Virus record (IMG/VR): IMGVR_UViG_3300032132_000004
Span: 1 to 64,000 of that record
Reading direction: 5' to 3' (one strand)
Source of the DNA: a virus
DNA length: 64,000 bases
The number at the start of each line of letters is the position of its first letter. Position 1 is the first letter of the stretch. Below are positions 4,837-40,894 of this stretch, piece by piece. The translations under genes were made by a program, and so were the position numbers. A model generated the notes under the pieces. It was given only the letters and a program-made list of their open reading frames with translations. It did no database searches and was not told the origin of the DNA.

Positions 4837-6867
4837 TTAAAGAATATTAAGAATACCTGTTCCTTCCAACGCATTAAGAGTTGGGGTAGATGCTCGATAA
4901 TTTAAATCACAGCTAAGGCTTGAGTTCCAAGGCAAAAGCATCCTATCTGCTACCATACCTAATGCCACAGCAGCAAAACCTCTAGCTCTTTCTGTATGTG
5001 TATCATCGTTTAGTAGTTCAACCAAAGGATCAACAGATCTTGAGTCTCCAATAAAGGCTAGAGACATTACAATAGAAGCTTGCGTAGCAGTACTCCTAGA
5101 TTCTTTGAGCATCATAACCAAGTCTGGGACTAGGGAGTAGTCTCCCATGAGCCCAAGACTTATAGCTGCCTGTTGTATTAGTGCGGGTCGGAACTTAGAC
5201 TTACCTATAATTTCTTTAATGGGTTCGATAGCTTCACGCTCATTAAGTAATCCTAAACCCACACAAATGTAGCCCTTAGTAGGACCATCACTTGTTTTGC
5301 TGAGCTTTTTTAAGAGAAGACCCTCTACATCAAAAACTCCTGCTAGTCCAGTTGCTATACAAGCAGCACCTACTCTATTAGGAGATTTTTCAGACTCCAC
5401 TCCATCTAGAAGTACTTTAGAAATAATATCAGGAACAGGTAACTGCGCCTCCCTTAAGCGATTTGATAAAACACCCAAGGAAATGTAAGCCCATGGTTTC
5501 GCAAAACTCTTACCTTTTTGAACCTGGGTGATCAGGTACTTTTGGACCTCACCAGTGCCTGCCAAGCCATCAGGCCCAGTCCCTTGCTTGCTTCCTAGTG
5601 TAGCCAATGCAATCAAGGTAAACGATCTAGTCTGCTGGTCTGACACATTAACAGGAATCTTAAATAGAGCTTTCCTAATCTTCTTATCTATCTCATCATT
5701 GTCAGCGTCACCAAGTAACCCTAAGCCTATAACACAACTCTGCTGAACTTCTCTTTTCTCAGAGCTAGTGTACGTTAGTCTGCTGAGGAACTCATTGCAT
5801 ATAACCTCTTTGTAGAGTGCGTACTCCTCTTCATTAGCGTTAGCTATAGAAAAGCTTAAGGCCTCTGGTATGTGGGCACGGACCAAGTGATTATTTCTCT
5901 CGTTCTTAAAGTAATCTAGCAAAAATCTTACCTGCTCAACCCTAGCCTCTGTATCAAGGTTAAGCAACCCTAGGGAAACTACAGCAGCAATCTTTACATC
6001 TTTGTAGCTAGATTTATCCTCTACAATAATACCTCTTAACTCTGTAGAGATACTTGCTACAACTGCTGGGTTGTCTGATTCGCTAGCGATCAACCCTAAC
6101 GCATAAACAGCAAAGGTTCTAGTACGGAATGGAACCTCGTTGGTTCTCCCTACTGCCACCCTTCCTTCTCTAGTATCTAATACCAAAGCAGTTAGCAGGG
6201 GAATACTCTCTTCCGATCCTAAAATACCTAGAGCTAAGGCAGCAGTCTCTGAAATCTCTTGATTACTATCCTTTAGAAAAGGAATAATAACAGGTACAAA
6301 ACTATCCTGCACAGTTTGATTACCTATTTTAGCTAAGGACATAAGACATCCTGTGATAATGTCATTATTGTTTTGAGTCTCTAATGAATCTAAAAGAGCA
6401 GGAATAATTTTATCTCGTATAATTAAAGGACTAACTCCAATAATATCAGATGATTGATCCTTCTCACCATGACCTAAGAAGAAATCATCTCCACCAGTAC
6501 GTGGACCTCCTTTATGGATCTTATTCTTAAGAGCTAAGTAAGGATCTTTATTAAACTCCCACCAAAAAGACCACTGAGTTAGGTCTGGGCCTCCTAAACC
6601 TGCGGGAGAGGTAGGTTTGGCAGGACCTCCTCCTGGCTGTCCTGCGGGAGAGCCAGGAGAGGCAGGACTAGGGGAGCTAGGACCAGGGGATTTAGGACCA
6701 TTAGGAGTGGGTGTAGGACCAGGGGAGTTAGGACCTCCTCCACCTCCTCCTCCACCCCCTCCAGGGGGAACGGTATCTCCAGGCCCTCTATAGGTCCCTC
6801 CATGTCCGTAAAGAGAAGGACAACATACTAACACGAAAAAAACTACTAAACTTAAAAACTTACTCAT
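4837..6867 (-). CDS. Exported HEAT-repeat protein with a Pro/Gly-rich N-terminal linker
   Basis: Signal peptide MSKFLSLVVFFVLVCCPSLYG, then HGGTYRGPGDTVPPG(n), WSFWWEFNK and many AALALG-type HEAT repeats; start set to ATG 6867, just after the nrdJ stop. Confidence 0.8.
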   Translation of the reverse strand: MSKFLSLVVFFVLVCCPSLYGHGGTYRGPGDTVPPGGGGGGGGGGPNSPGPTPTPNGPKSPGPSSPSPASPGSPAGQPGGGPAKPTSPAGLGGPDLTQWSFWWEFNKDPYLALKNKIHKGGPRTGGDDFFLGHGEKDQSSDIIGVSPLIIRDKIIPALLDSLETQNNNDIITGCLMSLAKIGNQTVQDSFVPVIIPFLKDSNQEISETAALALGILGSEESIPLLTALVLDTREGRVAVGRTNEVPFRTRTFAVYALGLIASESDNPAVVASISTELRGIIVEDKSSYKDVKIAAVVSLGLLNLDTEARVEQVRFLLDYFKNERNNHLVRAHIPEALSFSIANANEEEYALYKEVICNEFLSRLTYTSSEKREVQQSCVIGLGLLGDADNDEIDKKIRKALFKIPVNVSDQQTRSFTLIALATLGSKQGTGPDGLAGTGEVQKYLITQVQKGKSFAKPWAYISLGVLSNRLREAQLPVPDIISKVLLDGVESEKSPNRVGAACIATGLAGVFDVEGLLLKKLSKTSDGPTKGYICVGLGLLNEREAIEPIKEIIGKSKFRPALIQQAAISLGLMGDYSLVPDLVMMLKESRSTATQASIVMSLAFIGDSRSVDPLVELLNDDTHTERARGFAAVALGMVADRMLLPWNSSLSCDLNYRASTPTLNALEGTGILNIL

Positions 6868-6868
6868 T

Positions 6869-8755
6869 CTAACACTCACCTCCTGCAAGGGAACAAACAT
6901 CCCCTGCTTGTACTGCTGCCTCTACTGGTTGAACCATGTATTTATCAATGTTCTCTTGAGTTAACTCGATAGCTGCCAAGGGTTCCCCCTCCTTTGCTCC
7001 TGCTTTATACACTGTTAATCCTTTAAGATAAGGAGCATAGTCCAGAGCTTCTTTAGAAAACGATTCAGAGGTAGCGGTAGAGGGAAGATTAATTGTTTTT
7101 GAAATACAGGAGTCGATGAACTTCTGGATGGTTGCTTGTACCTTGATGTGGTCTTCTGGGGCAACGTCAAAAGCGCCGACGAATGGATCCAGCGGTTTCT
7201 TCTGATCATAATATTCTTGGAACAAAGGATCAACAACTAGGGTTTCTTTCCAAATATTGTTGCTCCTATAACGACGGGAATACATAGCAGAAAAGATAGG
7301 CTCAATACCTGAACTAACCCCGTGCAACATACTGATAGTGCCACAAGGAGGGATAGTAAGCATAACAGCGTTGCGAATGCCGTGTCGTTTGATAAGCATC
7401 CTAATACGAGCGGGGAGAGTTTTTGCAAAATCTTCATCTAGGTACTTCTTGTAATCAAACTCAGGGAAGGGCTTCTTATCCCGTGATAGGTATATAGACA
7501 TCTTATAAGACTCATCTCGAATAGTACTGAATAATCTTTCAAGAAACTCCAAGCAAGACTCACTTCCATACCGTAGGCCCAACTTGATGAGCATATAATG
7601 TAGCCCTGTGACCCCTAGACCTATGCGTCTTGATCTTTCCCCTACCTTTTTGCACTCTTCAGTTGGAAAAGTGTTAACTGTAAGAACATTGTCAAGAAAT
7701 CTTACACCCGTCCTAACAGTTCTAGCCAAGCGTTTCCAATCAAGGTCGCTACCGTCATCCAAAACCATATTACTGAGGTTAATATTGCCGAGACAACAAT
7801 TACCATAACTAGGTAATGAGATTTCTCCGCAAGGGTTCGTTGCATCCAGGCTTTCAAAGTATGAAACATTAGTATAACTATTCGCTAAATCAATGTTATA
7901 TATACCAGGATCGCCAGACTCAACGGAATTCTTCCAGATGATATCCCAAAGCTCATTTGCTTTGATATCATCTATCATTACCACTTCAAAAACATCGGTG
8001 CTTGCTAATTTGTTGAAGTTATTAGCTCTGTTGAGAGCATCCTCTTCACTCATACCAATCACCCAGATAAGATCTTCACCATTCCTGCAAAGCTGATACC
8101 TGTGGTACTCTTTGTTGTTAAACGTGAAGAACCAGTCCTCTCCCAACTCTACTGCCTCTAGGAATCTATTAGTGATAGCTACGGAGATGTTGAAGTTGTT
8201 TAGTTCTCCCTGGTCTAGCTTCACACTCAAGAACTCTAGGAGGTCTGGGTGAGTGATGTTGAGGATCCCTATGAGAGCCGTCCTGCGGTTCTTTCCTGCT
8301 CGGACATGCTCACCTACCTCATTGATCATTTTGAGCACAGAGACGCTCCCAGGGGCTGAGTTGGGGACGCTGCCGATATCATCCCCTTTAGGACGGAGCT
8401 TGGATACGTTGAAGCCTACTCCTCCTCCTGCACAGGAAATCCTGTACATATCCTTAATAGTTTTGCCAATTGAATCAACGTTATCATCAGGAATAATAAC
8501 ATAACAATTAAGCAGGTTATGATTCCCCCTGTTACGCCCAGCACCGTAAATGATACGACCCCCAGGAATGAAATCACCTGAGCCCACAGCATCATAAAAA
8601 GATTTCTCAATTTTCTCTTTCTGCTCATCCCTCTCAGCGGAAGCTACTACCTTAGCTATTACCTTCGCCCTGTCTGCCCACTTAGTCTCGCCTGGGTAAG
8701 CGTATCTTGCTTCGAAAATCTCTTGTCCTAGCTTACCTAAAGTTGCATTTGCCAT
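6869..8755 (-). CDS. nrdJ: Ribonucleotide reductase, class II (B12-dependent) type
   Basis: PGGRI, LLNC, TNPCGEISL, RRIGLGVTGL, KGLTVY (no class I YY pair), C-terminal Cys pair; no nrdB nearby. Confidence 0.8.
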   Translation of the reverse strand: MANATLGKLGQEIFEARYAYPGETKWADRAKVIAKVVASAERDEQKEKIEKSFYDAVGSGDFIPGGRIIYGAGRNRGNHNLLNCYVIIPDDNVDSIGKTIKDMYRISCAGGGVGFNVSKLRPKGDDIGSVPNSAPGSVSVLKMINEVGEHVRAGKNRRTALIGILNITHPDLLEFLSVKLDQGELNNFNISVAITNRFLEAVELGEDWFFTFNNKEYHRYQLCRNGEDLIWVIGMSEEDALNRANNFNKLASTDVFEVVMIDDIKANELWDIIWKNSVESGDPGIYNIDLANSYTNVSYFESLDATNPCGEISLPSYGNCCLGNINLSNMVLDDGSDLDWKRLARTVRTGVRFLDNVLTVNTFPTEECKKVGERSRRIGLGVTGLHYMLIKLGLRYGSESCLEFLERLFSTIRDESYKMSIYLSRDKKPFPEFDYKKYLDEDFAKTLPARIRMLIKRHGIRNAVMLTIPPCGTISMLHGVSSGIEPIFSAMYSRRYRSNNIWKETLVVDPLFQEYYDQKKPLDPFVGAFDVAPEDHIKVQATIQKFIDSCISKTINLPSTATSESFSKEALDYAPYLKGLTVYKAGAKEGEPLAAIELTQENIDKYMVQPVEAAVQAGDVCSLAGGEC

Positions 8756-8757
8756 AG

Positions 8758-11329: not shown

Positions 11330-11985
11330 AAAGCTTTCCAGCTAACAGGGAATAGTTCTTCCATAATCTTACCTATAGCTTTAGCATACTCCTGGGTTTC
11401 AAGCTGAGTGTGAGGGTCTGTTCTTTGTGTGAACATATGGTGCCAACCTAGTAGTGTTCCCGTTGTAACTGTTGTGGTGTACATAGATTGGGGCAGGACC
11501 ATACGAGCTTGCTCTGGGCAAACCCCCATCTCTAATAAATTTGAATACTCTTGCAAAGCATATTTGTTTGCTATACCAACGCGAACTCTAGCATTGGTAT
11601 TCCCTCCCTTTGGTTCTTCATTAATAGATCCCTGTTTCACATTATTTGGTCTAGCTCTAAACTTCCAAGGAATATAAAACTCAGGCTCTGATTTAATGTA
11701 CCTACGAGATACCTCACTCCAACTGAACCCCACTTGATGCTTGCCTATCTGTCTTAGTACGAACAGAGGAGCGACGATTCTAATAGTAGCACTAGGATGA
11801 CGGAAGGGAAGTAAATGCTTATGCTTTGCCAAGTAATTAATAAGCTTTGCATCTTTGTCATTCTCAAATATCTCATGTGCTTTATCAAAGGAACACCTAG
11901 CAGCATTTACTACAAGTAGATCACCTTTACAGGTGCTACTTATTAACTCCACTGATCCCCTGTCTAGTACTTTAATATTTACCAA
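11314..11985 (-). CDS. thyX: Flavin-dependent thymidylate synthase
   Basis: VNAARCSF, PFRH, KHQVGFSWSEVSRRY, EQARMVLP, HTQLE. Confidence 0.92.
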   Translation of the reverse strand: MVNIKVLDRGSVELISSTCKGDLLVVNAARCSFDKAHEIFENDKDAKLINYLAKHKHLLPFRHPSATIRIVAPLFVLRQIGKHQVGFSWSEVSRRYIKSEPEFYIPWKFRARPNNVKQGSINEEPKGGNTNARVRVGIANKYALQEYSNLLEMGVCPEQARMVLPQSMYTTTVTTGTLLGWHHMFTQRTDPHTQLETQEYAKAIGKIMEELFPVSWKALCQHS

Positions 11986-13046
11986 GCTGTCACTTCCTTA
12001 CAGTTACCAAAATTGGTACCTACTTCGATGTCGATGTCCAAGGGAATGTCGAAGTGGATGTTGAAGATCTCTTTCACAAGAGGGTAGTGTACCATTTCAT
12101 GATAGATGATGTCGAGCATTTGTTTCTCCTCTTCTTTGGGACAAACTGCTTCGATGCTGTCATGCACCGTAGCGACTGCGTATCCTTGCAGCCCTTCCTC
12201 CTCGATTCGTCTATCAATACCAAGTAGAACGGTCATTAGGATATCAGACGCAGGACTTTGGATGGTGAAGTTCAACCCTTGTCTCAGGGATCTGTTAACT
12301 ACCTTGAAGTCTCTACTGCATACGTTGGGAAGGTTCCTTGTGCGACCGAAAATAGAGTAGGCGTATCCGTTCTCTTTGATATAATTATTTACGAACTCCA
12401 TGTAAGAGAAGATGCCTGGGTAGACGTTCTCGTAATCCGCGATAATCTTTTTAGCTCTGGGTAGAGAGATCCCCATAGTCTCACTAAGGTTGAACGCTCC
12501 TCCTCCGTACACGATCAAGAAGGATACTGTCTTGGCGATCTGTCTCTCTGTCTTTGTGATCTCCTTCTTGTTGAACAGGAGCTTACCAGTATATGTGTGG
12601 AGGTCAGCACCTTGGTTGAAGGCAAGCTGCATGTTACCCTCCTTCGCAATGTGTGCTAGGATTCTAAGCTCCATAGCCTTGTAGTCGGCAGCAATAAAAG
12701 ACCAATTTCCAGGGGCTTTATACAGGCTACGAATGTTATTCTCTTTCTCCCTGGGTAGAGTGTGAAAAGAAACACCCATAGCTTCCTTAGCTTTGTAAGA
12801 AGCACAGGACAGTCGCCCAGTAGCAGTACCGTCGAAGTTATATACCATGTACACCTTATTGTGTCCGTTGTATGCAATAGCCTTCTTTGTACCAGTGATA
12901 TAAGTTTTGGTTAGCTTCTCAGACTTACGAAGATCCAACAAGCCTTGCAGGAACTTCTTTGTGTTGCGTAGATCATCCGTACTCTTACCAGCTAGGACTT
13001 CCTTACTGATTCTCTTTCCTTCGTCTCTGTATTTCCAGTTAACCAC
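11979..13046 (-). CDS. polA: Family A DNA polymerase, catalytic (palm/fingers) subunit of a split enzyme
   Basis: TATGRLS, motif A ADYKAMELRILAH, motif B RQIAKTVSFLIVYG, motif C VHDS; GTG start overlaps the upstream stop, with GAGGAG upstream. Confidence 0.9.
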   Translation of the reverse strand: MVNWKYRDEGKRISKEVLAGKSTDDLRNTKKFLQGLLDLRKSEKLTKTYITGTKKAIAYNGHNKVYMVYNFDGTATGRLSCASYKAKEAMGVSFHTLPREKENNIRSLYKAPGNWSFIAADYKAMELRILAHIAKEGNMQLAFNQGADLHTYTGKLLFNKKEITKTERQIAKTVSFLIVYGGGAFNLSETMGISLPRAKKIIADYENVYPGIFSYMEFVNNYIKENGYAYSIFGRTRNLPNVCSRDFKVVNRSLRQGLNFTIQSPASDILMTVLLGIDRRIEEEGLQGYAVATVHDSIEAVCPKEEEKQMLDIIYHEMVHYPLVKEIFNIHFDIPLDIDIEVGTNFGNCKEVTAW

Positions 13047-13515
13047 GTTTCTCTAGCTCCTCATTAGTTTGTTCCAGAAGGATCTTCAAAGTGGGGGCAG
13101 ACACTGAGGGCTTTCCTTTAGTTGTCCTGTCGGGAGGATACAACTCCAAACCTCCTTCTCTGGTGTACAGGATATCCATAAGGTCACCACCTGAAAGGTT
13201 ATCTGTTTTTAACACACCATCGCACTCATAAAGAAGGTCTTCATCTTCAATATTCTTAGTCTTCAAATGCCTACCCACAGAGTCTAGGTTCTCCGTAGCA
13301 ACATCCAAGCCTACGAACTCCTTCTGTGCGAAGGTATTAAGGGAAGGCATAAGGACATGCTCAATGAGCTTCATAACAGGTTTGCCCTCAAGCTTCTCCA
13401 TTACCAGATCAAACAGCTTGAGTGTGAAGTATGTGTCGAAGGCATTTCCTTCTGCACAATCAGACAGGGACATCTCATCCCATTTGAAAGTTTTAGGATT
13501 AGAAATCGTAAGCAT
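13039..13515 (-). CDS. Family A DNA polymerase, middle subunit (ExoIII-like helix plus part of thumb)
   Basis: NAFDTYFTLKLF (ExoIII-like), E..GLDV, TTKGKPSVS thumb-like motif; lies between the exonuclease and polymerase ORFs. Confidence 0.75.
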   Translation of the reverse strand: MLTISNPKTFKWDEMSLSDCAEGNAFDTYFTLKLFDLVMEKLEGKPVMKLIEHVLMPSLNTFAQKEFVGLDVATENLDSVGRHLKTKNIEDEDLLYECDGVLKTDNLSGGDLMDILYTREGGLELYPPDRTTKGKPSVSAPTLKILLEQTNEELEKRG

Positions 13516-14543
13516 TAAAGACTCTCCAACTCTCCAGCAAAGTATAGTTTAACAAGATCCATCAGGCTTCCAGGCATGTTCTCATCTAATTGATGGTGCA
13601 TAACCTTAGTGTCCCAAGGGTTGGTTACTTTGATTCCGTAGTTCAGAAGGAACTTCAGGTCAAACTTAGCGTTGTGAAATACTTTCCTTGCAGGACTCCT
13701 CATAATAATCCTAAGGAAATCTCTTAGACTAAGCCACTTAGAATTTAATACCTCCCCCTTTTTAAAAGGACTATCTTTGTGGTCAACAGGAATAACCCAT
13801 GTCTCTTCTCTGCATGAGATAGAGATGGTCATGATCTTATCCGTAAGGAAGTTCAGTCCTGTAGTCTCAAGGTCTACAGCGAGGTCATCAGTGTAGTTTT
13901 GAAGCTTCTCAGCAAGAGCAGAAACCTCCTCCAAATTCATCAACACAGAGTAGTTAAAGTTACCCTCGGTCTTCTTGCCTAGGATATACTTCTCGTAGGC
14001 ATTCTGAATGTCTCTCTGGAAGAGAGGAAGGTGAGCAGGCTCTTTGATACAAGCATAAGGATGGAAGAGCGGAACTACAGTGCAGGTATTCCCATTTTCA
14101 GTTGTGTATTGGTAGGCCTTACCTCGCTTACTTGTAATTCCACTCTTTTTGATCAACATTTTCATAGCCATGTTACCACAGGGGAACACTAGCTTAGGCT
14201 TCACCTTATCTATAGTAGCCTCTAGGTGTACCCGACAGATCTTCATATCGTTAGAGGTCATGTCTGCCTCTCTAACGTCAGGGCACTTGACAGAGGCTGC
14301 TGTTACGAAGTCCTCTGAATAACTCTCCTTGATGAGCTTGAGGGACTGGGGCATAAAAGCTACGGTCGAACCATGCTTGTAACTTAGAGAATCAGATAGG
14401 AATAGGACAGGAGACTCCCTAAGTTCTTCGTAATCCATGTGAGAATGGCACGGTTTGTTTTTACTTAGGATGGTACAGCCTTCGCAGAGAGGGTTATCCC
14501 CCTGCATCTTACTGTCACTATATAAATTGTTAAGATCAAACAT
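13515..14543 (-). CDS. Family A DNA polymerase, N-terminal subunit: family-4 UDG-like domain plus 3'-5' exonuclease (ExoI/II)
   Basis: CEGC, VKCP, CRVHL and FHP (UDG4-like); DLETTG, HNAKFD and WDT (DnaQ-like exonuclease). Confidence 0.85.
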   Translation of the reverse strand: MFDLNNLYSDSKMQGDNPLCEGCTILSKNKPCHSHMDYEELRESPVLFLSDSLSYKHGSTVAFMPQSLKLIKESYSEDFVTAASVKCPDVREADMTSNDMKICRVHLEATIDKVKPKLVFPCGNMAMKMLIKKSGITSKRGKAYQYTTENGNTCTVVPLFHPYACIKEPAHLPLFQRDIQNAYEKYILGKKTEGNFNYSVLMNLEEVSALAEKLQNYTDDLAVDLETTGLNFLTDKIMTISISCREETWVIPVDHKDSPFKKGEVLNSKWLSLRDFLRIIMRSPARKVFHNAKFDLKFLLNYGIKVTNPWDTKVMHHQLDENMPGSLMDLVKLYFAGELESL

Positions 14544-25119: not shown

Positions 25120-28100
25120 TTAATCCGTTAAAGCTGTTACTACATAATAGTACGTAACCCCGTTAGTTAGACCAGTGTGTAAAAAGTTACTAAGAGTAAG
25201 AATAGAACCATTTACCTGTGTATAAGGTCCTCCTTGATTAGTAGATTGATAAACGTTGTAGCCAAGGAGGTTACTTTCAGTATTATCATTCCAATAAAGA
25301 TTTACAAACTCATCCCCTGGGACTGCTGTAAGGCCTGTGGGTGCTACTACTGGAGGAGGAATATTTGGAATGCCCGCTACTTCAGCACTTTGTGGGGATT
25401 GGAACGATCCAAAGCTATCCCTAATAGTAGAAGGAAAAGCAGTTACTACATAATAGTACGTAACCCCGTTAGTAAGTCCTGTATCTACATAGGAGTTAGT
25501 ACCTAAATAACGAGGCACTACTTGCTCATAAGGTCCTCCTGAAATTAAAGATCTCCAAAGTAGATAAAATACAGGATCTGTATTATCAGTCCAAGTAAGA
25601 CTAAGAGTTCCATCGTTAGGAGTTACCGTTAGCCCCGTAGGTGCTGCTGGTATGGAGTCTACATACCAGCCAGGATTAATAAGAGGTTCTGTAAAAGATA
25701 CAATCCCAGCAGTTTGTATACTATCATGAAGCCATACGTTGTTAGAAACAGTAGGATTGCCTTGAAGTGAAACCCCTAAAGGAGTATCAACTTGGTAACC
25801 TCTAAGAATTCTATTATTTTTAAAAACTACATTCTTGGGAATATTATCAGAGTTACCATCATCAGGTTCTCTGCCTGTAATATTAAGAAATCTTATACCT
25901 GCATTGATCCAGTTATCTTCAATAAGAACGTCCTTAATACCTCCCTGGGGGACATTACCCCCAAGACCAATCTGCAAAGCAACACCATCTCCCCAAGGAT
26001 TCCCAGGTCCAGCATGTTCACCAAGTACTTCCATGGCTTGATGATGAGGAATATCAAAGAAGTTTCCTTTAATATCTATACCATTTCCTTTTCGTACTTC
26101 TAAAGCATTAAAAATTTCTGTATTGTAACCTAAGTGGTGAATCCAGTTTGCTTCAATAGTAGTACCAATACTATTTAATGGAGTCTTAGCATCTACTACA
26201 ATACCATCCTGCCCCATAGAATGAAGCTCACAGTATCGTAGATTAAAATCATAGCCTATTATCCCTGCTTTTGCAAAGTTTTTAATTTCTGCATTCTCAA
26301 TAGTAACTCCTCCAAAGAATCTATTAGGAGAAAGACCATCAAGAGGAGCATTGCATATAATACCATAGTCTGGTCCGTCTGTAGGGGAGACAGTTGATCC
26401 TACAACACTGAAGTTTCTAAGAGTTACAGGTATAGTAGTGGCACACCATATTGGACCGTCATGAGAGAAGTTTTCAAATACCGTTGCCTCCGTAGTCTCC
26501 CCAGTTACAGGATCATAATTGCTAAAGTTCTGTGCAACAGCGTCATCATTAATAACAAGTACACCATCCTGATTAATAGCAAAAGAATATGAGTCAGAAG
26601 CTGGTACTAAACTCCCTGCCCATCCTGTATTTCCTGCACCTGGGGTAAGGTCTATAGGGGGTGGTGCTCCTTCGCCTGAGGCTAAAGCTGTTATCTGCTC
26701 TTGCGTAAGAGCTTGAGCAAACAGACGAACATCATCAATACGCCCATGGAATGATTTGTCAGAGGGTCCACCTGGGGGCTGGTTTCCTATTGCTACAGGA
26801 ATGCCAGCGTTAACTGCAACGCTCCCTGTTTTAGGAGTGCTGCCAACCTCAAGTCCATCTAGGAACAACTTCATTGTTGTTCCATCATATAAAGCAACAG
26901 CATGATGCCATGTATTAGTTTGCAATGCTCCTTGAGAAGCTATAAGAGTAGAAGTTGTAGTACCAGTCTTTAGACGGAAGCGTAAGCGAGTTTCTCCTTG
27001 CTCAGTAATAGTACTTAGCATCCAATGATGTTCTTGCTCTTGCACTCCTACAGCTTTGGACATTATTCTAGCATCAGTAATACCAAAGGAATCAGCATTA
27101 AACCAAGTGGCTAAAGTAAAAGCACTTCCAGGGACATCTACATTCCCAACATCTACACGATCCTCTTCTCCATCAAAAACTAAGGACCAAAGGGAGGACT
27201 GCTCAGGAGAGGGATCTCCCCAAGTCGCACCTACTATAGTTCCATCATTAAATCCATACCCTGAGTCTACTGTTGTAAGACCTGTTCCTTCTTCGAAAGA
27301 CCAGTGGCCCAAAGGAGGACCAAGTGGAGGAGGTGGCGCAGGAGTGGCAGTAACTCCAGAACTCTGTGGAGACTCCTCTGCATCTGCGTTTACAGCAGTT
27401 ACAACATAGTAGTACTGAGTACCATTTTCTACAAGATCGTCTAAGTAAGAAGTACCAGTAATTAAACCAGCGTTTTGTAAAACAAAGCTACCCCTTGGAG
27501 ACTCTGAACGGAAAACATTATACCCATCAATGTTTGATTCTGAGTTAGCGTCCCAAGTAAGGGTTACAAGTTCGTCCCCTGGGTTTGCATTTAGACCTGT
27601 AGGTGCTGCTGGTGGGCCTGTGGGGGGAGCAGTTCCTGCTCCGTTAAAAAAACAAAGCTCTCCAAACAAAGGTGAGGAAGGAGGAGAGGTAAATCCATTA
27701 ATAATACTTCTTTCCGGGGGATAGTGCTCATCGTCGAATACAGTAGCATACATATCTGTATCTTCTATACCGCACCACCTATTTCCTGTAACTACAGTAG
27801 GATTAGCTCCTCCTTGGTCAAGAGAGATAGGACCAAACGCATATAAATCACCAAATATATTATCTCTAACAAAACAATTTTGAGGGAAAGGATAAGAGGC
27901 ATTCTTTCTTTCAACGTATACAATATTATTACCACCGTTCATCCAATTGTTATCAATACGAAGACCTTCAGGTCCTCCATCTATTCCGTGGGTATCATTA
28001 CTAGATTGAATAATTACAGCAGCATTAGATTTATAAATCCAGCTACCTCCTAAAGTGTAAGGAGCAGTATGTGTAGCGGCTCCTGCTATTGCAGCTAAGG

Positions 28101-29142
28101 TATCATAAGGAGCTTCGGGTCCAAGATTGTTATAATCATTAGGCCAAACAGGATTTGGGTCGCTTGGGTTTTTTGGAGGGGGGTTTGGCCCAAACCCTTC
28201 TAAAGATTGCGTCCACCTACCAGCCCCCGCAAGCACAGGTGATCCATTAAGCATTACGGTTTCCCCTGTTACATTACCATTAACAGCCCATGGATAACTG
28301 CCTCCTTGTATAGATCCCATAGGAGCTAGATTCGGAGTTTGTAAATTTCCTGTAACACCTCCCTTAGGGACTGATAGTGGATCTACCGCAGGAGTATGCG
28401 TGCCAGGGTGATTAGGATGGGGCATATCACAAAAGTTATGGTGAAAATTAACATCCCTACCTAGATTTCTAATCTGAAGTGCATCACAATGAGAGTGTAT
28501 CCCGCGACCGTTGTGATGAATCCAGTTATTATTTATCTCAGACCTCATAAGACTAAGCATAGAATCAGCACCAGCATCATGCATATTATTATGGTGCCAA
28601 TGATTTCTAGTCCCCTCTTCTACACCCCCATTACATATAATATGCTGGCTAATAGGATTAAGCATTTCACAAAAACGAATCTCCGTGGAGGAGTGTAAAG
28701 TATTGGCAGAAGGTATATTAACACATTGAGAATTAGAAAATGCTGCATCAATCCAACAATCTTCAATCAATATGTTATTGGCTTTTTGAGCTTCCGTACC
28801 TTTAATTAATATGCTACGTAGATCACACTTCTTTATAGTACAATTACTATGCCTGATTTCTATATAAGAAGTAGCAATAACATTTTCTATAATTTGATTA
28901 TCTGCTGTTGTTTTTATACGTGTTCCATTCCATAAGGGGTGATTTTCTTGAGAGATAAAAGTAATATCAGTCTTCTCTACTGGTGTATGTCCTATAACAA
29001 TAGCCCCAGGTCCAGTGTTGGTAGGTCCTGGCTTTTCTACTCCTCCAATAATATTTTGAGTTGGAACTCCGGTATCTCGTACAGTAACAATACGACCTTC
29101 TTTTCTAACTTTCTTATAATAACGATCTCTACGTTGTGCCAT
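25120..29142 (-). CDS. Large fibre/appendage protein: two right-handed beta-helix regions, FN3 repeats and a LamG domain
   Basis: I.NNW repeats and HCDALQ (beta-helix); three FN3 units (APTGL..PGD..V.L.W...YYYVVTA); LamG (WHHAVALYDG..MKLFLDG, F.GRIDDVRLF). Confidence 0.8.
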   Translation of the reverse strand: MAQRRDRYYKKVRKEGRIVTVRDTGVPTQNIIGGVEKPGPTNTGPGAIVIGHTPVEKTDITFISQENHPLWNGTRIKTTADNQIIENVIATSYIEIRHSNCTIKKCDLRSILIKGTEAQKANNILIEDCWIDAAFSNSQCVNIPSANTLHSSTEIRFCEMLNPISQHIICNGGVEEGTRNHWHHNNMHDAGADSMLSLMRSEINNNWIHHNGRGIHSHCDALQIRNLGRDVNFHHNFCDMPHPNHPGTHTPAVDPLSVPKGGVTGNLQTPNLAPMGSIQGGSYPWAVNGNVTGETVMLNGSPVLAGAGRWTQSLEGFGPNPPPKNPSDPNPVWPNDYNNLGPEAPYDTLAAIAGAATHTAPYTLGGSWIYKSNAAVIIQSSNDTHGIDGGPEGLRIDNNWMNGGNNIVYVERKNASYPFPQNCFVRDNIFGDLYAFGPISLDQGGANPTVVTGNRWCGIEDTDMYATVFDDEHYPPERSIINGFTSPPSSPLFGELCFFNGAGTAPPTGPPAAPTGLNANPGDELVTLTWDANSESNIDGYNVFRSESPRGSFVLQNAGLITGTSYLDDLVENGTQYYYVVTAVNADAEESPQSSGVTATPAPPPPLGPPLGHWSFEEGTGLTTVDSGYGFNDGTIVGATWGDPSPEQSSLWSLVFDGEEDRVDVGNVDVPGSAFTLATWFNADSFGITDARIMSKAVGVQEQEHHWMLSTITEQGETRLRFRLKTGTTTSTLIASQGALQTNTWHHAVALYDGTTMKLFLDGLEVGSTPKTGSVAVNAGIPVAIGNQPPGGPSDKSFHGRIDDVRLFAQALTQEQITALASGEGAPPPIDLTPGAGNTGWAGSLVPASDSYSFAINQDGVLVINDDAVAQNFSNYDPVTGETTEATVFENFSHDGPIWCATTIPVTLRNFSVVGSTVSPTDGPDYGIICNAPLDGLSPNRFFGGVTIENAEIKNFAKAGIIGYDFNLRYCELHSMGQDGIVVDAKTPLNSIGTTIEANWIHHLGYNTEIFNALEVRKGNGIDIKGNFFDIPHHQAMEVLGEHAGPGNPWGDGVALQIGLGGNVPQGGIKDVLIEDNWINAGIRFLNITGREPDDGNSDNIPKNVVFKNNRILRGYQVDTPLGVSLQGNPTVSNNVWLHDSIQTAGIVSFTEPLINPGWYVDSIPAAPTGLTVTPNDGTLSLTWTDNTDPVFYLLWRSLISGGPYEQVVPRYLGTNSYVDTGLTNGVTYYYVVTAFPSTIRDSFGSFQSPQSAEVAGIPNIPPPVVAPTGLTAVPGDEFVNLYWNDNTESNLLGYNVYQSTNQGGPYTQVNGSILTLSNFLHTGLTNGVTYYYVVTALTD
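25136..25473. repeat. Exact 32-bp direct repeat between the last two FN3 modules
   Basis: GTTACTACATAATAGTACGTAACCCCGTTAGT at 25136-25167 and 25442-25473. Confidence 0.9.
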
Positions 29143-31831: not shown

Positions 31832-31835
31832 AATA

Positions 31836-32922: not shown

Positions 32923-32945
32923 TATGCTCCATAGTATATAGGACT

Positions 32946-32983: not shown

Positions 32984-33004
32984 GTATTAAGTAATTACTA
33001 ACTA

Positions 33005-34666: not shown

Positions 34667-34685
34667 AATAATAAATCCTTAAAGA

Positions 34686-35327: not shown

Positions 35328-35351
35328 ACGTATACGTCTCCTAGGTTACAA

Positions 35352-35359
35352 TATCTATA
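35352..35359 (-). promoter_or_regulatory. Putative late promoter TATAGATA of the scaffold-capsid operon
   Basis: One mismatch from the T4 late consensus TATAAATA; AT-rich upstream tract; AGGAG downstream. Confidence 0.6.
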
Positions 35360-35413
35360 ACCCTCAGAATAAATTTTTATTTTTATTTAAAAAATGTATG
35401 TTTAAACTAAGGC

Positions 35414-36796
35414 TTACTTTACATTAAGCATCTCAGCGATTATGTTACCAATTCTCTTGTAGGCAACAGCCTCGTGAGTCCCGTGTTCTTTCTTAAATCT
35501 ATCTTTACTTTGGGTTGCGGCTCCTCTAGCTCCCCCTATGTATTTTTTCCTTTTAGCTTTATCGTCGTTTGGGTTATTTTTTCTTGCCTTAGTCAGTCTT
35601 GCTTTAAGCTGTTTGGCTAATTTATTCCTATCGGCCTGAAGCTCTACGGTTCTAGTTTCGCCTGGTTTTCTACCCGCTACTGTCCTTTTAGAGTCTTTAG
35701 GTTTAAGGGCATCAGCCTTCTTTTGGAGCATAGCCTTACTCTTATCGGAATAGTCTGCTGACCCTGGGCCTCCAGCGCCAAGTTTAGCTCTTAAACCTAC
35801 ATCGCCTCCAGCTTCGCCCCTTGCTCTGATTCGAGATGCCTGAACATCGCCCACAGCTTCTGCCCTTTTACCTGCTTTTATCCTCAAACGATCCCTAAAG
35901 CCAGGACCACTTTTGCCGCTACCACTAGGTTGCCTAGATATTAGTTCTTTAGCAAGGTCCCTATTTTCTTTATCCTTTTTTTGGGAATCTAACTCACTAC
36001 TAATATCTTCTCTAAGAATAGAAGCAAGAGCATGTGCTATTGGGATATAAGAATCTTGAACATAGCGCATCATTTGATTCGAGGGCCTCTTCTTCTTCTT
36101 CTTCTCAGGCTTCTTAGGCTTCTCAGGCTTCTCAGGCTTCTCAGGCTTCTCAGGCTTCTCAGGCTTCTCAGGCTTCTTAACCTCCTCAATCCAAGGCTGA
36201 TATGCTTCACGAAGTTTAGACTGTAGCATGGTAACTAGGTTACCCTCTTTCTTAAGCTTGCTCTGAGACTCTCTAACAAACTGGTTTTCTGTAGACTCAC
36301 ACATGCCTGGGAAAGCTCCTCTAGTTGATGGATCTGCAACTAGGTCGAAGGTAACTAGCTTGTAGTCTTCGTTGACGATCTTGTTTCCTTCAGAATCTTC
36401 TGAAAGAGTTCCCATGCCTCTGCTTGAAATACCAATCTTAACTCCACCTTCTACAAGAGCTTTAGCTGTAAGACCAGCAGGAGTGTTCAGGAGTTCTGCT
36501 TCTCCAATATAATCGTTGCCTACTAGGTCTAAAGTTGTGATTAGGTGGGAAGCGTTAGAGAGCTTTACAGTGTCGTTCTGGGGGTGGTCGAGTTCTCCGC
36601 ACAGTCTGCGCTCTGCAATCAAAGGCTGAACCTGCTTTAGCTGTCCTTCTAGAACATTACGTGGGTAGATTCTACCGTTGTTGTTCTTCTCATTACAACG
36701 ACCAAAGACGCCCTTAATCTTAGTTGGGCCTTTACCTTTACTTTCAGAAATAATCTGTAGGTTCTCAATTATAAAAACATCTTGGAGTAATTGCAT
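35414..36796 (-). CDS. Prohead protease (gp21-like) with a long basic C-terminal extension
   Basis: NNNGRIYP, GELDHP, SH, TPAG, GISSRGMG, DLVADPS; start moved to ATG 36796. Confidence 0.93.
   Translation of the reverse strand: MQLLQDVFIIENLQIISESKGKGPTKIKGVFGRCNEKNNNGRIYPRNVLEGQLKQVQPLIAERRLCGELDHPQNDTVKLSNASHLITTLDLVGNDYIGEAELLNTPAGLTAKALVEGGVKIGISSRGMGTLSEDSEGNKIVNEDYKLVTFDLVADPSTRGAFPGMCESTENQFVRESQSKLKKEGNLVTMLQSKLREAYQPWIEEVKKPEKPEKPEKPEKPEKPEKPKKPEKKKKKRPSNQMMRYVQDSYIPIAHALASILREDISSELDSQKKDKENRDLAKELISRQPSGSGKSGPGFRDRLRIKAGKRAEAVGDVQASRIRARGEAGGDVGLRAKLGAGGPGSADYSDKSKAMLQKKADALKPKDSKRTVAGRKPGETRTVELQADRNKLAKQLKARLTKARKNNPNDDKAKRKKYIGGARGAATQSKDRFKKEHGTHEAVAYKRIGNIIAEMLNVK
36102..36173. 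repeat. 9-bp tandem repeat, 8 units (one variant), encoding (KPE)n
   Basis: TTCTCAGGC units read directly from the sequence; in frame within the protease extension. Confidence 0.95.
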
Positions 36797-36797
36797 A

Positions 36798-37205
36798 TTA
36801 TTTATCCTTCTTATCTTCTCTTCCGTCCTTGCCACCAATACCGCGTTCCTTCTTGATGGATCTACTACCGTACTTCTGAGCTAACTTGTCTGAGCCTTTG
36901 CCGTACCTTAGGAGAGTACGTGCAGCGTGCTTCTTAACGCTAGGAAACTTAGCGGAGGGGGTAGCACTTCCAGGCGTGAAGCCTTTAGCGATCTTTCCTC
37001 TACCACTCTTCTTGCCCCACTTACCTTTAGATACAACGTATATCCTACCAGCAGCTTTAGTTGTAAACATACTACCATAAGCCCCATCAGAGAGAGCAGA
37101 CTTAATACTATCGTAAGTCTTAACTCTTCCTTTGAATGCTTTCTTCTTTTCCTTAGGCTCTTCTTTGCCTTCGGAAAGTGTGGTTAGTAGGTCAGTAAAT
37201 TTCAT
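36798..37205 (-). CDS. Basic putative prohead core/internal protein
   Basis: Lys-rich, N-terminus MKFTDLLTTLSE, directly upstream of the protease gene. Confidence 0.55.
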   Translation of the reverse strand: MKFTDLLTTLSEGKEEPKEKKKAFKGRVKTYDSIKSALSDGAYGSMFTTKAAGRIYVVSKGKWGKKSGRGKIAKGFTPGSATPSAKFPSVKKHAARTLLRYGKGSDKLAQKYGSRSIKKERGIGGKDGREDKKDK

Positions 37206-37693
37206 TTGCGTCTTGAAACAAGTCTAGCTCTAATAGAATCTTTTCGCTTTTCTTTTTTGCTATTTTTAGGTTTCTTATAAGTAGCCTCTGGTGAGGGGTT
37301 AGATTGCTCAGGACCAGCTAGGTTACATCCAATGTGCCCTGTGCCAGTAGTAGCTGCCGTCATCTCTTTAAGGAGATTCCGTACTTCCTCTAGCAAAGGT
37401 ACAAGCTGTTGGGCTGTACTCTCTGTTAGAGTTTCTAAAGAAGGCTTCTCTTCCAGCTTATCATCCGTCCAGACTACTTCTGGCATAGCTTCATCTGCTG
37501 GCTCTTCCTGTGAGTGGAAGCTCTCCCCTAGAAGAGACTTCATAAAAGAATCAGGAACCCTAGTCTCGGAGATATCAATGCCAGCAGGAGCTAACCCAGA
37601 TCCCTTTGAATTAGGGGGTAGAGCTTTCCCTTGCTTAACATCGGCAACACTCTCAAGAATTAGCTTCTCTGCGAAATCGCCTATGCTATCCAT
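37202..37693 (-). CDS. Putative prohead core protein
   Basis: ILE, LTE and LKE sites; located in the head-core cluster. Confidence 0.5.
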   Translation of the reverse strand: MDSIGDFAEKLILESVADVKQGKALPPNSKGSGLAPAGIDISETRVPDSFMKSLLGESFHSQEEPADEAMPEVVWTDDKLEEKPSLETLTESTAQQLVPLLEEVRNLLKEMTAATTGTGHIGCNLAGPEQSNPSPEATYKKPKNSKKEKRKDSIRARLVSRRK

Positions 37694-38058
37694 TACTCTT
37701 CTTCAGTTACATCTTGAAGAAGGATTTCTTTAATAGTTGCGTCTATGACAGCATCAACATCCTCTTCGCTCTCATCAAGCTGAGAGAGACGATCTACAAG
37801 ACCGACAACTACTTCAAGGTGCTCTAGAATACGATCTTCTTCGATAGCCTCTGAAAGCTCAGAAGTGCAAAGAGGGCATACGTGTGCTTCCTCGATAGTA
37901 TCTTCTTCAGCCTCTACGGCTGGAGCTTCTTCTTCTTTCTCAACTACCTCCGAGGTAGCCTCATCAACTCGCTCTACTGGAGTGATGCCTACTTTGCCCC
38001 ATGCTGCTGATTCTAGTAGCTGGTTGCGAAGCTCGTCCGTTAATTTAATGTGATCCAT
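37693..38058 (-). CDS. Acidic putative prohead core protein with a CPLC motif
   Basis: Very acidic, LLE/IEE/LDE sites; ATG at 38058 preferred over TTG at 38070; CTAAATA upstream (38105-38099). Confidence 0.55.
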   Translation of the reverse strand: MDHIKLTDELRNQLLESAAWGKVGITPVERVDEATSEVVEKEEEAPAVEAEEDTIEEAHVCPLCTSELSEAIEEDRILEHLEVVVGLVDRLSQLDESEEDVDAVIDATIKEILLQDVTEEE

Positions 38059-38146
38059 TGTATTATCCAATTTTGGTTAAGATTTTCATCTCTACACATA
38101 TTTAGCTTAGTTGCATATAATCTCTAGTTTTATTTTGAAAAATGAC

Positions 38147-40894
38147 CTAGCGTGGAGTAGAACGCTTTGTTGGGGGTTCTGTGGTCGTTGGAGGCACAAC
38201 CTGCTCTCCTGTGTTGAGGGACTTGATGGGTTGGAAGGTGTCAGTTGTTGCAGCAGCTTTAGCCTTTCTCTGCACTAGTAGAGACTTGAAGAAGTTGATC
38301 CTTTTGTCTGCACTTTTAATAGGAGGTACCACCTTTACATCGCTAAAAATACCATTTCTAATAGAGTCCCTTATGAGGGGGAAATTCTCTAAACCAAGTA
38401 GTCTATTGAACTGATGAAAGTATAACCTACTAAACACATCATGCTCTGTAACTGATTTTCCAATACCGTTAAAACCTAGGAGGTAGTTATCATCCATCTC
38501 AGTGATAATCTCTTTCAACAACCGTAAGCCTGTCTTCTTTCTAGCTGGGGTAAAGGTGGAGGCTGAGACTAAATCATTACCTTCCCTATATCCTGTAGTG
38601 AATATCTTATCCCCAGGGGTGATTTGAGTAATCCTAGCTTGGGTATTAGGGTTCCCCCAAACGTCTGTTCCATCCCTTCCATTGGTTTGCAAACGTACAA
38701 ATTTGTTTGTTTGTTCTTTATTTAGGTTTGGAACTATACTAGTCCTACACCTTAGCTGTCTGATCACTGTGCCAGAAGTCTCCATAGACACGATCTGAGA
38801 CTTACTATTGAAGACGTTTAGATCGCTTCTGTTAGTGGGATATACTATTATGTACCAAGGGATTTGCCTAGTTAGGAGAGGTATTGTTTTGTTTACCTTA
38901 GGGGAATCAAACAGAATGTCTGTCTGCTTCATAGTAAGAGAGGAGGTATCCTCTATATAATCCAGAATAATATCCTCATCATCCAAGAGGAATACCCTGT
39001 TATTTGCTTTGTATTTTATATAAGCGTTCACTTCTGCAAGACCAGCATCAGTAACGGTGTCTGCAAGCTCGTATCTTGCCGTAGTATCTTTAAGTAAGAA
39101 GGATCCAGTAGGGCTTGGTTTGGTTGTAATAGAGCTTAGTACACAACTAAGCATGTAGTACGGTTGTCTGGTAGCAGTTAAAGAGTAGTTGAACTCTATG
39201 TTCGATAGGATACTTGCGCTAACCTCCAGTGTTCTCCCTGAGTCCCCCCCTAGGAGGTTGATAGCTTTTTGCCTTGTCCTCTCTGGGATTAGGAATGCGT
39301 GATCCTTCTCAGACTTAACAAAAAGATCGTAAGTCTTATCCCCTCTCTTCACCTTGAAACAATCTCCGTCGTGAATAGAAAGGGAACTTCTCTCAATGAA
39401 AGTATCATCATCGTTAAGGTAGAACTGTCGTATCTCTCCGTCAATCTTACAATCAATCCTCTTGTCTGTGTCAGAGGCTAGAGTCTTCCAGTTAGGAAGA
39501 ATATTCTGCATGTTACCCTTAGCGTTGGAGACATCTAAGCTGAACATATCCCGCTCAATTAAAGACACTGCTGCAATTTCGTTAACCTTATCATGCACAC
39601 TTCGTTTAATAAGAACTGGTTCCCTACTCTTACTGTCTTCTGCTAAGGTTCTAAGTAGGCGTAGAGGAATAGCATCTAAAGTTCCATCCAAAACTCTAGA
39701 ACCAATCATAGAGAATATTTGATTCTTATTTAAAGGAGTACCGTCGTAGTTTCTTATCTCCTCTAGGAGAGTCCTTACTTCTGGCTTCAAGCTTCTGTAC
39801 AAGGAATCAGGGGTTACCCCTGCTGTGTAGTTACTATTCCAATTTCCTGTATTATCTTGGTTAGACAAAACATACTCTATATTACTGTCAATCTCCTTGT
39901 TAAATAGCTCAGTGTGTCTGGAAGTATTCCTAGCTATGGTAGGAGCAGGAGGAGTTAAATCAAAGGCAAGGTCTGCATCCTCTAGTCCCATAGGATTTTC
40001 TTCTAATAAAGTTCCTATGATAGTAGGATCGTTTAGATCAATTTCTCCTGTTTCCATTGCTGCATTAACTAAAGAATCTACATTCGTACCTACGTTCCCA
40101 TTTCCTATAGGAGGAGTAGAAGGTTCAATTAAACCTCCTCCTATACTAGGAGTTAAAGTATCTGCTAGAGTTCCTACATTACCTCCTAAATCATTGTCGC
40201 CTGGATCAAGTAAGCCTTCCCCTGGATTTGGGGCTAGGTTATCTTCAAACGTTCCTACGTTCCCACCGAAAACGTCTCCACCCCCAGGGGTTACGGTACC
40301 TCCTCCAGGGAAGGGGTTTTGAGGTCCAACGGGAATTCCTCCACCTCCTCCTCCTGGGGCTGGTCCTGGGATATCATCGTTTGGGCTTTCTGGGGGGGGC
40401 CTATTACAGTTATTTTCACAGTCTGCCTGGGTCCTATAAGCACCCCCTCCAGGGGGAACGGTTATATCTTGTGTAAAAGAAGTACACTTATAATCAGGGA
40501 AGCCTGAGCACTTCCAGTATGTTACTAGGGTTCCGCCGCCTCCGCCTCCTCCTCCCCCACCTGGGGCTGCTGGGGAAGGTGGGCCAGGGGAAGTTGGTCT
40601 AGGGGCCTGAGGACCTCCTCCTGGCTGTCCTGCGGGTCCTCCTCCTGTGCCTGGGACTACTGCGGGTGGTGGGGGATTGCCTGGAGGGGGCACAGGACCA
40701 GGAGTGCTAGGTCCAGGCTGCACTGGTCCTGTGGGTACTTCAGGGGGAGATGGCTCTAAAGGAGGTATACTAGGCCCAGGCCCAGGATCACCTCCTCCGC
40801 TATCAATAGTTCCCCCGCCATCAAATTCAGGAAAGTTGCCGGGACCAAATCCAGGGAGAAAAGTCCCGCAACCGAATGTGGGATTCTCGGCCAT
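38147..40894 (-). CDS. Large putative structural protein with a Pro/Gly-rich N-terminal region
   Basis: 915 aa; last gene of the baseplate/fibre run; long PG-rich tract, a small 4-Cys module and GNVGT repeats. Confidence 0.65.
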   Translation of the reverse strand: MAENPTFGCGTFLPGFGPGNFPEFDGGGTIDSGGGDPGPGPSIPPLEPSPPEVPTGPVQPGPSTPGPVPPPGNPPPPAVVPGTGGGPAGQPGGGPQAPRPTSPGPPSPAAPGGGGGGGGGGTLVTYWKCSGFPDYKCTSFTQDITVPPGGGAYRTQADCENNCNRPPPESPNDDIPGPAPGGGGGGIPVGPQNPFPGGGTVTPGGGDVFGGNVGTFEDNLAPNPGEGLLDPGDNDLGGNVGTLADTLTPSIGGGLIEPSTPPIGNGNVGTNVDSLVNAAMETGEIDLNDPTIIGTLLEENPMGLEDADLAFDLTPPAPTIARNTSRHTELFNKEIDSNIEYVLSNQDNTGNWNSNYTAGVTPDSLYRSLKPEVRTLLEEIRNYDGTPLNKNQIFSMIGSRVLDGTLDAIPLRLLRTLAEDSKSREPVLIKRSVHDKVNEIAAVSLIERDMFSLDVSNAKGNMQNILPNWKTLASDTDKRIDCKIDGEIRQFYLNDDDTFIERSSLSIHDGDCFKVKRGDKTYDLFVKSEKDHAFLIPERTRQKAINLLGGDSGRTLEVSASILSNIEFNYSLTATRQPYYMLSCVLSSITTKPSPTGSFLLKDTTARYELADTVTDAGLAEVNAYIKYKANNRVFLLDDEDIILDYIEDTSSLTMKQTDILFDSPKVNKTIPLLTRQIPWYIIVYPTNRSDLNVFNSKSQIVSMETSGTVIRQLRCRTSIVPNLNKEQTNKFVRLQTNGRDGTDVWGNPNTQARITQITPGDKIFTTGYREGNDLVSASTFTPARKKTGLRLLKEIITEMDDNYLLGFNGIGKSVTEHDVFSRLYFHQFNRLLGLENFPLIRDSIRNGIFSDVKVVPPIKSADKRINFFKSLLVQRKAKAAATTDTFQPIKSLNTGEQVVPPTTTEPPTKRSTPR

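Follow-up and report, generated by a model that had tools for sequence, protein, structure and literature searches.

Mosaic evolution in phage structural genes is exemplified by the tail-fibre genes of T-even phages, which recombine at short conserved Gly/His-rich motifs. Marine T4-like phages also carry host-derived auxiliary genes, and one of these, the cyanophage gene psbA, shows patchy recombination between host and phage copies. Here we consider a stretch of 64,000 nucleotides, positions 1 to 64,000 of the IMG/VR virus record IMGVR_UViG_3300032132_000004 (hereafter the window), in which two blocks of 27 and 22 nucleotides (nt) are shared by two genes lying 34 kb apart. Gene A is a HEAT-repeat gene, and gene B encodes a protein of 915 amino acids (aa) in the structural module. 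We regard the blocks as probable products of short-tract ectopic gene conversion or template switching, running from the linker of the HEAT gene into gene B.

The locus is like the T-even tail fibres in belonging to a T4-type phage, in offering short glycine-rich coding motifs as substrates, and in leaving a patchy mosaic in the variable part of a structural-module gene. In tail fibres, however, whole domains are swapped between homologous fibre genes of different phages, whereas here patches of ~25 nt would have moved between non-homologous genes of a single genome, one partner being a host-derived auxiliary gene. Like psbA-type auxiliary genes, gene A belongs to a host family present in marine T4-like phages, with phage clades nested among host sequences, and it sits among replication and nucleotide-metabolism genes. 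Unlike psbA, it encodes a putative exported HEAT-repeat protein from Planctomycetota and no metabolic enzyme, and its exchange is with another phage gene, not with a host copy. Gene A shares the whole architecture of a Planctomycetota HEAT family (named 'HEAT repeat domain-containing protein' at NCBI), whose ~695-aa members are its closest cellular relatives at 45–48% identity. Unlike the host copies, which stand as two to three tandem paralogues, each with the N-terminal family motif (loci L069, L077, L099 and L102), gene A is phage-encoded and low in GC. In a diversity-generating retroelement, too, a phage genome has a pair of near-identical stretches, of which one lies in the variable region of a structural-module gene. 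The present repeats differ from it in being 22–27 nt long, exact and free of adenine-specific differences, with a 'template' that is the coding sequence of a conserved motif. This candidate was rejected, as no reverse transcriptase domain was found among the 47 + 9 proteins scanned (73 kb).

The 27-mer AGGACCTCCTCCTGGCTGTCCTGCGGG (block 1) and the 22-mer CACCCCCTCCAGGGGGAACGGT (block 2) each occur exactly twice in the window (Table 1), with no third copy of either when up to two mismatches are allowed; none of 100 dinucleotide shuffles gave two matches. Both are read in codon frame 0 of both minus-strand genes. Block 1 encodes PAGQPGGGP (aa 85–93 of the 687-aa open reading frame (ORF) of gene A and aa 87–95 of the 915-aa ORF of gene B) and block 2 encodes TVPPGGG (aa 43–49 and aa 145–151, respectively), the order of the blocks being inverted between the two genes. 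The initial annotation had described two exact segments in opposite order, and this description is confirmed, with the additions that they are in frame and limited to two copies each. Identity covers all synonymous sites and ends abruptly on both sides. An all-against-all scan returned 17 exact repeat pairs of at least 15 nt, among which the two blocks are the longest dispersed pairs; the only longer repeats in the window are a 9-nt tandem array at 36116 and a 32-nt pair at 25136/25442.

Low-complexity Pro/Gly coding sequence invites the explanation that such identity arose by chance, and poly-Gly codon runs do match exactly up to 20 nt between unrelated genomes, while four-residue likenesses such as PTSP use different codons. 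Both blocks nevertheless exceed every null. The comparison with codon-shuffled Pro/Gly-rich controls that had been proposed for these segments gave a longest match of 17 nt in 1000 codon shuffles of the two Pro/Gly segments, and 2000 residue shuffles reached a maximum of 8 aa (in 5/2000) against the 9 aa observed. With the peptides taken as fixed, identical codons would arise with odds of 2.0e-4 and 5.8e-4 under the segments' own codon usage, or jointly ~1e-7. Between genomes, 22 N-terminal DNAs of gene B were compared with 124 HEAT N-terminal DNAs (2,728 pairs) and a further 57 with the same 124 (7,068 pairs); among the 9,796 pairs in total, only one shared at least 21 nt, namely the window's gene B with the window's own HEAT gene. 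All other cross-genome pairs shared at most 20 nt in poly-Gly GGN codons, or at most 19 nt otherwise. Synonymous-site identity, sharp borders and a match longer than any that the two families share between genomes together give the picture of a gene-conversion tract. Chance is excluded as the source of the blocks, and coincidence within the two tracts has next to no probability as an explanation. The peptides around the blocks had also been described as alike, which holds in part: PTSP is a likeness at the peptide level only, with all four codons differing (4/4), while the poly-Gly runs do match at the DNA level over 18 nt (6736–6753 and 40337–40354), a length within the between-genome range (up to 20 nt).

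A chimeric join at a shared repeat has to be considered, since the sequence of the window was assembled from a metagenome and small k-mers can be misled by repeats as long as these. The gene-B stretch, or part of it, occurs in 20 public marine metagenome runs from 14 studies, and eight of these runs contain at least half of its sampled words. Logan contigs of four runs from four studies (X1, X3, X4 and X7) were compared over 39900–41000; X1 is possibly the source sample, and the other three are not marked as such. In X1, a contig of 6,766 nt spans 39900–41000 with no differences, and a separate contig of 24,982 nt, with the HEAT context, touches the two blocks only. Continuations into the HEAT context appear as loose ends after 40462 in all four runs. 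Both contexts thus stand on separate contigs in X1, the contigs of all four runs carry the blocks, and both genes are full length and collinear with their homologues on both sides of the blocks, which leaves an assembly artefact a negligible probability.

The same contigs record how the blocks vary among strains. In X7, whose contig covers the stretch from end to end, there are 29 differences and three gaps in 1.1 kb, one gap being a 3-letter insertion behind 40532. Its gene B has no difference within 40441–40462 or 40610–40633, and carries eight differences in 40564–40606 and three at 40634–40636; these last three change the peptide to GAGQPGGGP, as in the 99% relative P0001. The HEAT contig of X7 departs from block 2 at one base and ends in 21 nt of block 1. 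Block 2 of gene B is unchanged in X3, X4 and X7; the contigs of X3 and X4 do not cover gene B at 40566–40787, which includes the block 1 site. Since the blocks lie in two separately assembled loci and are common to strains of four studies, they are real and older than the divergence of these strains. Intragenomic copying, rather than coincidence or misassembly, is thus upheld by the nulls and by the contigs of four studies; the epithet 'recent', which the initial annotation attached to it, is not borne out, as the blocks are common to variants separated by 29 differences and three gaps in 1.1 kb.

Gene A carries every hallmark of its family: a leader (read by eye), HGG.YRGPGD.VPPG, a Pro/Gly linker, W.FWWEFNK and a length of ~690 aa. 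Pfam HEAT_2 matches three stretches with 104.4 bits against a cut-off of 27.7, and HEAT_PBS scores 34 bits against 20.9; in NCBIfam only sub-threshold matches to phycobilisome lyase-type HEAT models were obtained, and no specific curated family was found. The 687-aa ORF is open to 6900 and overlaps the RNR gene (6869–8755) by 32 nt. Its start is likely the ATG at 6867, which would remove the overlap, because a 99% relative (P0121) begins at the internal Met MSKFLSL. In the family as a whole, the front end runs from a hydrophobic leader through HGG.YRGPGDTVPPGGGG, poly-Gly, a P[ST]TPGPSGP-type linker and GPDLT.W.FWWEFNK to the HEAT repeats. Residues H33, G34, G35, Y37 and G39–P46 are invariant in 22 aligned members; Y.GPGD is present in 120/120 homologues and [TS]VPPG in 112/120. 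The linker of gene A reaches a P+G fraction of 0.77 over 30 aa and has a GC content of 0.60, against 0.42 for the window.

Genomic relatives of gene A number 409, and the best 80 are almost all from Planctomycetota; in the scanned genomes the family is almost entirely confined to this phylum. One of its carriers is Engelhardtia mirabilis. In a tree with a midpoint root only, a clade of 10 phage HEAT sequences (SH-aLRT 100) is nested among Planctomycetota sequences, and a second phage group is placed elsewhere. Because the phage clade is nested in the host family and the gene is embedded between phage core genes, gene A is, judged from its sequence, a host-derived auxiliary gene from Planctomycetota. 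Its portrayal as a host-type gene with HEAT repeats and a signal-peptide-like N-terminus is borne out, and the host of the phage is probably a planctomycete. The order RNR-HEAT-173aa-DnaB recurs in three other loci (L039, L040 and L041). In host genomes, the HEAT paralogues follow sdhCAB-like (succinate dehydrogenase) genes in 3/4 loci examined. The HEAT/FWWEFNK family is encoded by 31 viral contigs (L038–L068), in some at full length (~687 aa); many viral forms are short (~235–250 aa), with only the leader, HGG.YRGPGD.VPPG, a Pro/Gly(/Arg) linker, FWWEFNKDPF and the first repeats. Some viral HEAT genes lie beside T4-type terminase and portal genes, HesB/NifU-type Fe-S genes or a tubulin-like gene. 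A tblastn search of the gene A and gene B proteins against 50,697 phage records gave no match, and in the literature library searched no title or abstract dealt with a HEAT-repeat gene in phages of Planctomycetota, nor did the motif string GPGDTVPP occur.

Gene B is conserved over its first ~35 and last ~620 residues, between which homologues have anything from almost nothing to more than 700 residues. Homologue length ranges from 521 to 1349 aa, and the variation lies in this stalk, which is made up of Pro/Gly runs, poly-Gly and small Cys-rich modules. The PGP, SPGP and poly-Gly runs in the translations of genes A and B have no three-residue period of the collagen-like Gly-X-Y kind. Block 2 of gene B lies in a four-Cys mini-domain, for which an AlphaFold2 (AF2) model (pLDDT 84.1) predicts a beta-hairpin (3–10/16–23), a coil at 24–31 that corresponds to TVPPGGG, and a helix (36–43). 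A ~45-aa four-Cys mini-domain of this pattern (W.C...C..TQD..PP..Y..QA.C...C) recurs in the stalks of P0007, P0010–P0013 and P0016, and other gene B stalks hold different C.C...C modules.

The direction of copying is clearest for block 2. GDTVPPGGG is part of the invariant motif of the HEAT family, and the corresponding site in six other copies of the mini-domain reads LPPPPNSY, IPPPPGAY or similar. Across 1.94 Mb of fetched loci, DNA resembling block 2 with at most three mismatches was found in HEAT genes only. An invariant motif in the HEAT family, differing mini-domain relatives and HEAT-only DNA together indicate that the donor of block 2 was a HEAT gene and the recipient a pre-existing Pro-Pro-Gly site. 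Block 2 of gene B agrees with the window's own HEAT allele at 21/21 bases, and the other 78 [TS]VPPG.. sites in the fetched loci agree at 13–19/21, which places the source in the same genome and not in a host gene.

Both patches might instead have been captured directly and independently from host HEAT genes during infection, and host-type linker strings do occur in gene-B lineages whose contigs (fragments) show no HEAT gene. Such capture has a very slight probability: both blocks reproduce the phage's own allele letter for letter, the agreement of host genes with block 2 is limited to 13–18/21 bases, host DNA is much more GC-rich in the block codons, and block 1 was not found in host loci. 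For block 1, the evidence on which family has the ancestral state and which the derived one is weaker than for block 2. In sister phage HEAT sequences, this end of the linker carries the related PGQGPGGPKTPT, and AGQPGGGP occurs among 120 gene-B homologues only in the 99% relative. These observations point the same way, and block 1 probably also passed from the HEAT gene to gene B.

Just two tracts of the window are strongly Pro/Gly-rich, with P+G above 0.7 over 30 aa, namely those of genes A and B, so that neither could have found a substrate in the window other than its counterpart. Both events would have taken place inside one phage genome, by short-tract, non-reciprocal ectopic recombination in which pre-existing CCN-CCN-GGN microhomology permitted the copying of two separate patches of ~22–27 nt. 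One patch would have entered the surface loop of the small disulfide mini-domain and the other a disordered linker. Both would then have been kept, probably as near-neutral spacer sequence, because, we propose, both sites tolerate such changes. Most strain differences fall in the gene B stalk, and at 40387–40394 seven bases within eight are replaced in X3, X4 and X7 relative to the window, turning PPPESP into PPESGP, as in P0001; such clustered multi-base replacements fit patchy exchange. Recombination and replication genes of T4 type seen in the record include gp32, SbcCD-like genes, UvsW and a PD-(D/E)XK nuclease.

A relative without the HEAT gene offers a further comparison, which had been suggested as a check. 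In the 71-kb relative G001, whose RNR and DnaB are 82% and 77% identical to those of the window, the HEAT gene is missing, and the 173-aa gene and DnaB come straight after RNR (G001:C1:7660-10146, L148); the HEAT gene is thus an insertion or loss at exactly this point within the clade. Its gene B has neither peptide, and shares at most two six-mers with any HEAT linker. In this one genome (n=1), patches and donor gene are both absent, which agrees with conversion. A HEAT gene was not found in five long gene-B records, of which only G001 reaches the syntenic site, the other four being fragments that end short of it. The copying reading is supported in a refined form, with the HEAT gene as donor and two separate short tracts that are not very recent.

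Several observations weigh against conversion followed by near-neutral persistence. The mechanism of block copying is itself inferred, and no recombination event was directly observed. Only one HEAT-less relative reaches the syntenic site, and no UvsX/RecA gene was seen in the 73-kb fragment (64% complete). The strains from four studies diverged after the blocks had formed, and in X7 the part of block 1 at 40610–40633 is unchanged (0/24) where 8/43 bases of its flank differ; constancy amid varying neighbours could mean purifying selection rather than neutrality. The fact that synonymous positions are identical and unchanged among strains would also fit a functional DNA or RNA site within the coding sequence, such as a recombination hot spot, a protein-binding site or a hairpin, and the coding strand of block 2 does contain the self-complementary run CCCCC-TGGA-GGGGG. 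That self-complementarity is, however, automatic from Pro-Pro-Gly-Gly codons. Beyond its two copies, and HEAT motif codons aside, neither block recurs in the 73-kb record or across the 1.94 Mb of related loci, and block 2 in the HEAT gene of X7 is already one base different. An element acting at the nucleotide level is a highly improbable explanation.

Likenesses between other gene-B lineages and host HEAT proteins count in the same direction, and suggest a reading in which HEAT motif and linker pieces are kept so that gene B meets the same host partner, modification or sorting system, recombination being only the means of delivery. We consider such selected mimicry, or a shared tag, unlikely. 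In a string comparison of 107 gene-B stalks with 120 HEAT N-termini, in which at least six non-Gly residues were required, 6/107 stalks share exact strings of at least 15 aa (15–18 aa) with host HEAT linkers, four of them at least 17 aa long, and reversed sequences give none. Examples are PSTPGPSGPSAPGPSGP in P0112 (17 aa, identical to 16 host proteins), VPPGGGGGGGGGGGPST in P0041 and P0044 (17 aa), an 18-aa string in P0034 and a 16-aa string in P0115. The strings have the sequence character typical of host linkers and lie mostly at gene-B aa ~55–115, and the [TS]VPPG sites of P0013 and P0101 at aa ~190–300. The pattern [DE][TSV]VPPG is found in 5/107 stalks against a mean of 0.16 in shuffles, 0/500 of which reach five. 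In 1.05 Mb of host DNA, 53/53 stop-free segments with the linker motif also have a HEAT-family motif (W.FWW.FNK in 52 and Y.GPGD in one). The short phage forms (~235–250 aa) retain exactly the N-terminal motif, the linker and FWWEFNK, and block 2 lies in a loop in the model. A more distant phage record, G006, combines a short HEAT-type gene with a remote homologue of gene B (E 9e-18), whose linker shares a mean of 5.33 5-mers with the HEAT-type linkers of its own phage group, against 2.31 with host types and 1.0 with the window's clade. This likeness comes without a DNA match of at least 12 nt and is not readily explained by conversion alone.

Against selection for mimicry, reversed controls still match up to 13 aa (in 2/107), so that part of the string signal is low complexity, and the five sequences with [DE][TSV]VPPG come from only some three independent lineages. 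No gene-B homologue (0/120) has the HGG.YRGPGD portion of the motif, 87/107 stalks have no match of at least 8 aa, and the window's gene B is not especially HEAT-like outside the two blocks. No prolyl hydroxylase or glycosyltransferase able to modify the linkers was seen in the window and the last 9 kb of the record, the genome being 64% complete. A broader form of the idea, which strikes us as rather improbable, is that across a large marine T4-like clade the gene B stalk repeatedly copies the HEAT tag and linker (D-[TS]-VPPG, poly-Gly and PSTPGPSGP-type sequence), and that the copies are selected for docking to, or being handled like, host envelope HEAT proteins. We continue to favour conversion from the HEAT gene into tolerant sites of gene B.

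The coordinates of the features discussed are collected in Table 1.

Table 1. Features of genes A and B in the 64,000-nt window, with the two shared blocks
Feature	Position	Strand	Evidence
Gene A, HEAT-repeat protein with signal-peptide-like N-terminus	4837..6867	-	Pfam HEAT_2 E 3.9e-30
Gene A, Pro/Gly-rich linker (poly-Gly, then PNSPGP...PAGQPGGGPAKPTSP)	6592..6753	-	translation
Block 1 in gene A (PAGQPGGGP), probable donor	6622..6648	-	exact 27-nt match
Block 2 in gene A (TVPPGGG + 1 nt), donor	6753..6774	-	exact 22-nt match; within invariant family motif
N-terminal family motif HGGTYRGPGDTVPPGGG, right after the hydrophobic leader	6754..6804	-	alignment of 22 members
Gene B, 915-aa core protein of the clade's structural module	38147..40894	-	124 homologues, all without a name
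Gene B, conserved C-terminal domain (620 aa)	38150..40009	-	33-65% identity, 21 sequences
Gene B, hypervariable Pro/Gly- and Cys-rich N-terminal stalk	40010..40789	-	homologue length variation
18-nt poly-Gly codon match to 6736-6753	40337..40354	-	repeat scan
Four-Cys mini-domain of gene B, block 2 in its loop	40385..40534	-	W7, C9, C17, C39, C43 invariant in 7 copies
Block 2 in gene B, recipient	40441..40462	-	exact match
Block 1 in gene B, probable recipient	40610..40636	-	exact match
Gene B, conserved N-terminal motif PTFGCGTFLPG.GPGNFP.FDGGGTID	40790..40894	-	F7, C9, G10, L13, G15 invariant in 25 sequences

Gene B is a putative virion protein by virtue of its position in a conserved structural module, whose order 1471-375-200-1166-838-geneB-121-163-135-protease-scaffold-major capsid protein is kept across ~30 related viral contigs (several partial). 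It has no match in Pfam, PHROG or NCBIfam; its profile found nothing among PDB sequences, the ESM Atlas gave no usable match, and a close-pattern scan of viral contigs found nothing. The C-terminal domain is modelled by AF2 with a pLDDT of 85.7 and a pTM of 0.86, and its predicted fold was matched neither in the PDB (Foldseek best E 0.02; VIA-align wide best Z 3.6) nor in BFVD (best E 0.04). The lack of a match for this modelled domain is no proof of a new fold. Its position before the prohead core, protease, scaffold and major capsid protein genes had raised the T4 gp20-type portal, with an N-terminal extension, as a candidate identity for gene B, an idea set aside when neither protein families nor PDB sequences nor known folds gave it support. 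In other T4-like phages that carry a HEAT gene, a normal Portal_T4 gene adjoins the terminase; Portal_T4 (PF07230) was not found in the 73-kb fragment by a search that was silent on control genomes too.

The window belongs to a distant T4-like myovirus. The IMG/VR record from which it is taken is a linear fragment of 73 kb with an estimated completeness of 64%. The window carries a gp23-type capsid protein, a gp21-type protease, sheath and tube proteins and homologues of gp25, gp6, gp53 and gp15, along with the replication and metabolism genes gp32, a DnaB-type helicase, SbcCD, RNR and a split family-A polymerase. The nearest cultured phages by capsid protein are cyanomyoviruses, at only ~30% identity. 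The family-A DNA polymerase is distributed over separate ORFs, with UDG-like and exonuclease parts at 13515–14543 and the polymerase domain at 11979–12848. Two other repeats lie inside coding sequence. The 9-nt unit AGGCTTCTC forms ~six tandem copies at 36116–36170 in the C-terminal part of the prohead protease gene (35414–36796), and the 32-nt exact direct repeat (25136–25167 and 25442–25473, 306 nt apart) is at the 3' end of a 1340-aa LamG/fn3 gene (25120–29142).

The blocks illustrate, cleanly and on a small scale, that low-complexity linkers allow sequence to pass between unrelated genes of a phage, here from a host-derived auxiliary gene into a structural-module gene. Were the patches selected, a host partner of both proteins would be indicated; and if the stalk were copying the HEAT tag throughout the clade, the HEAT family would become a candidate receptor or assembly partner, with the 22–27-nt blocks of the window as the freshest visible instance. 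In themselves the blocks are a modest curiosity and no new kind of system, and the gene families that surround them are of more interest. These connect marine T4-like phages of a large, uncultured clade with probable hosts among the Planctomycetota, expose a widespread phage-borne and putatively exported HEAT/FWWEFNK gene, and bring to light a conserved 620-aa phage domain with a confident predicted model and no known fold match.

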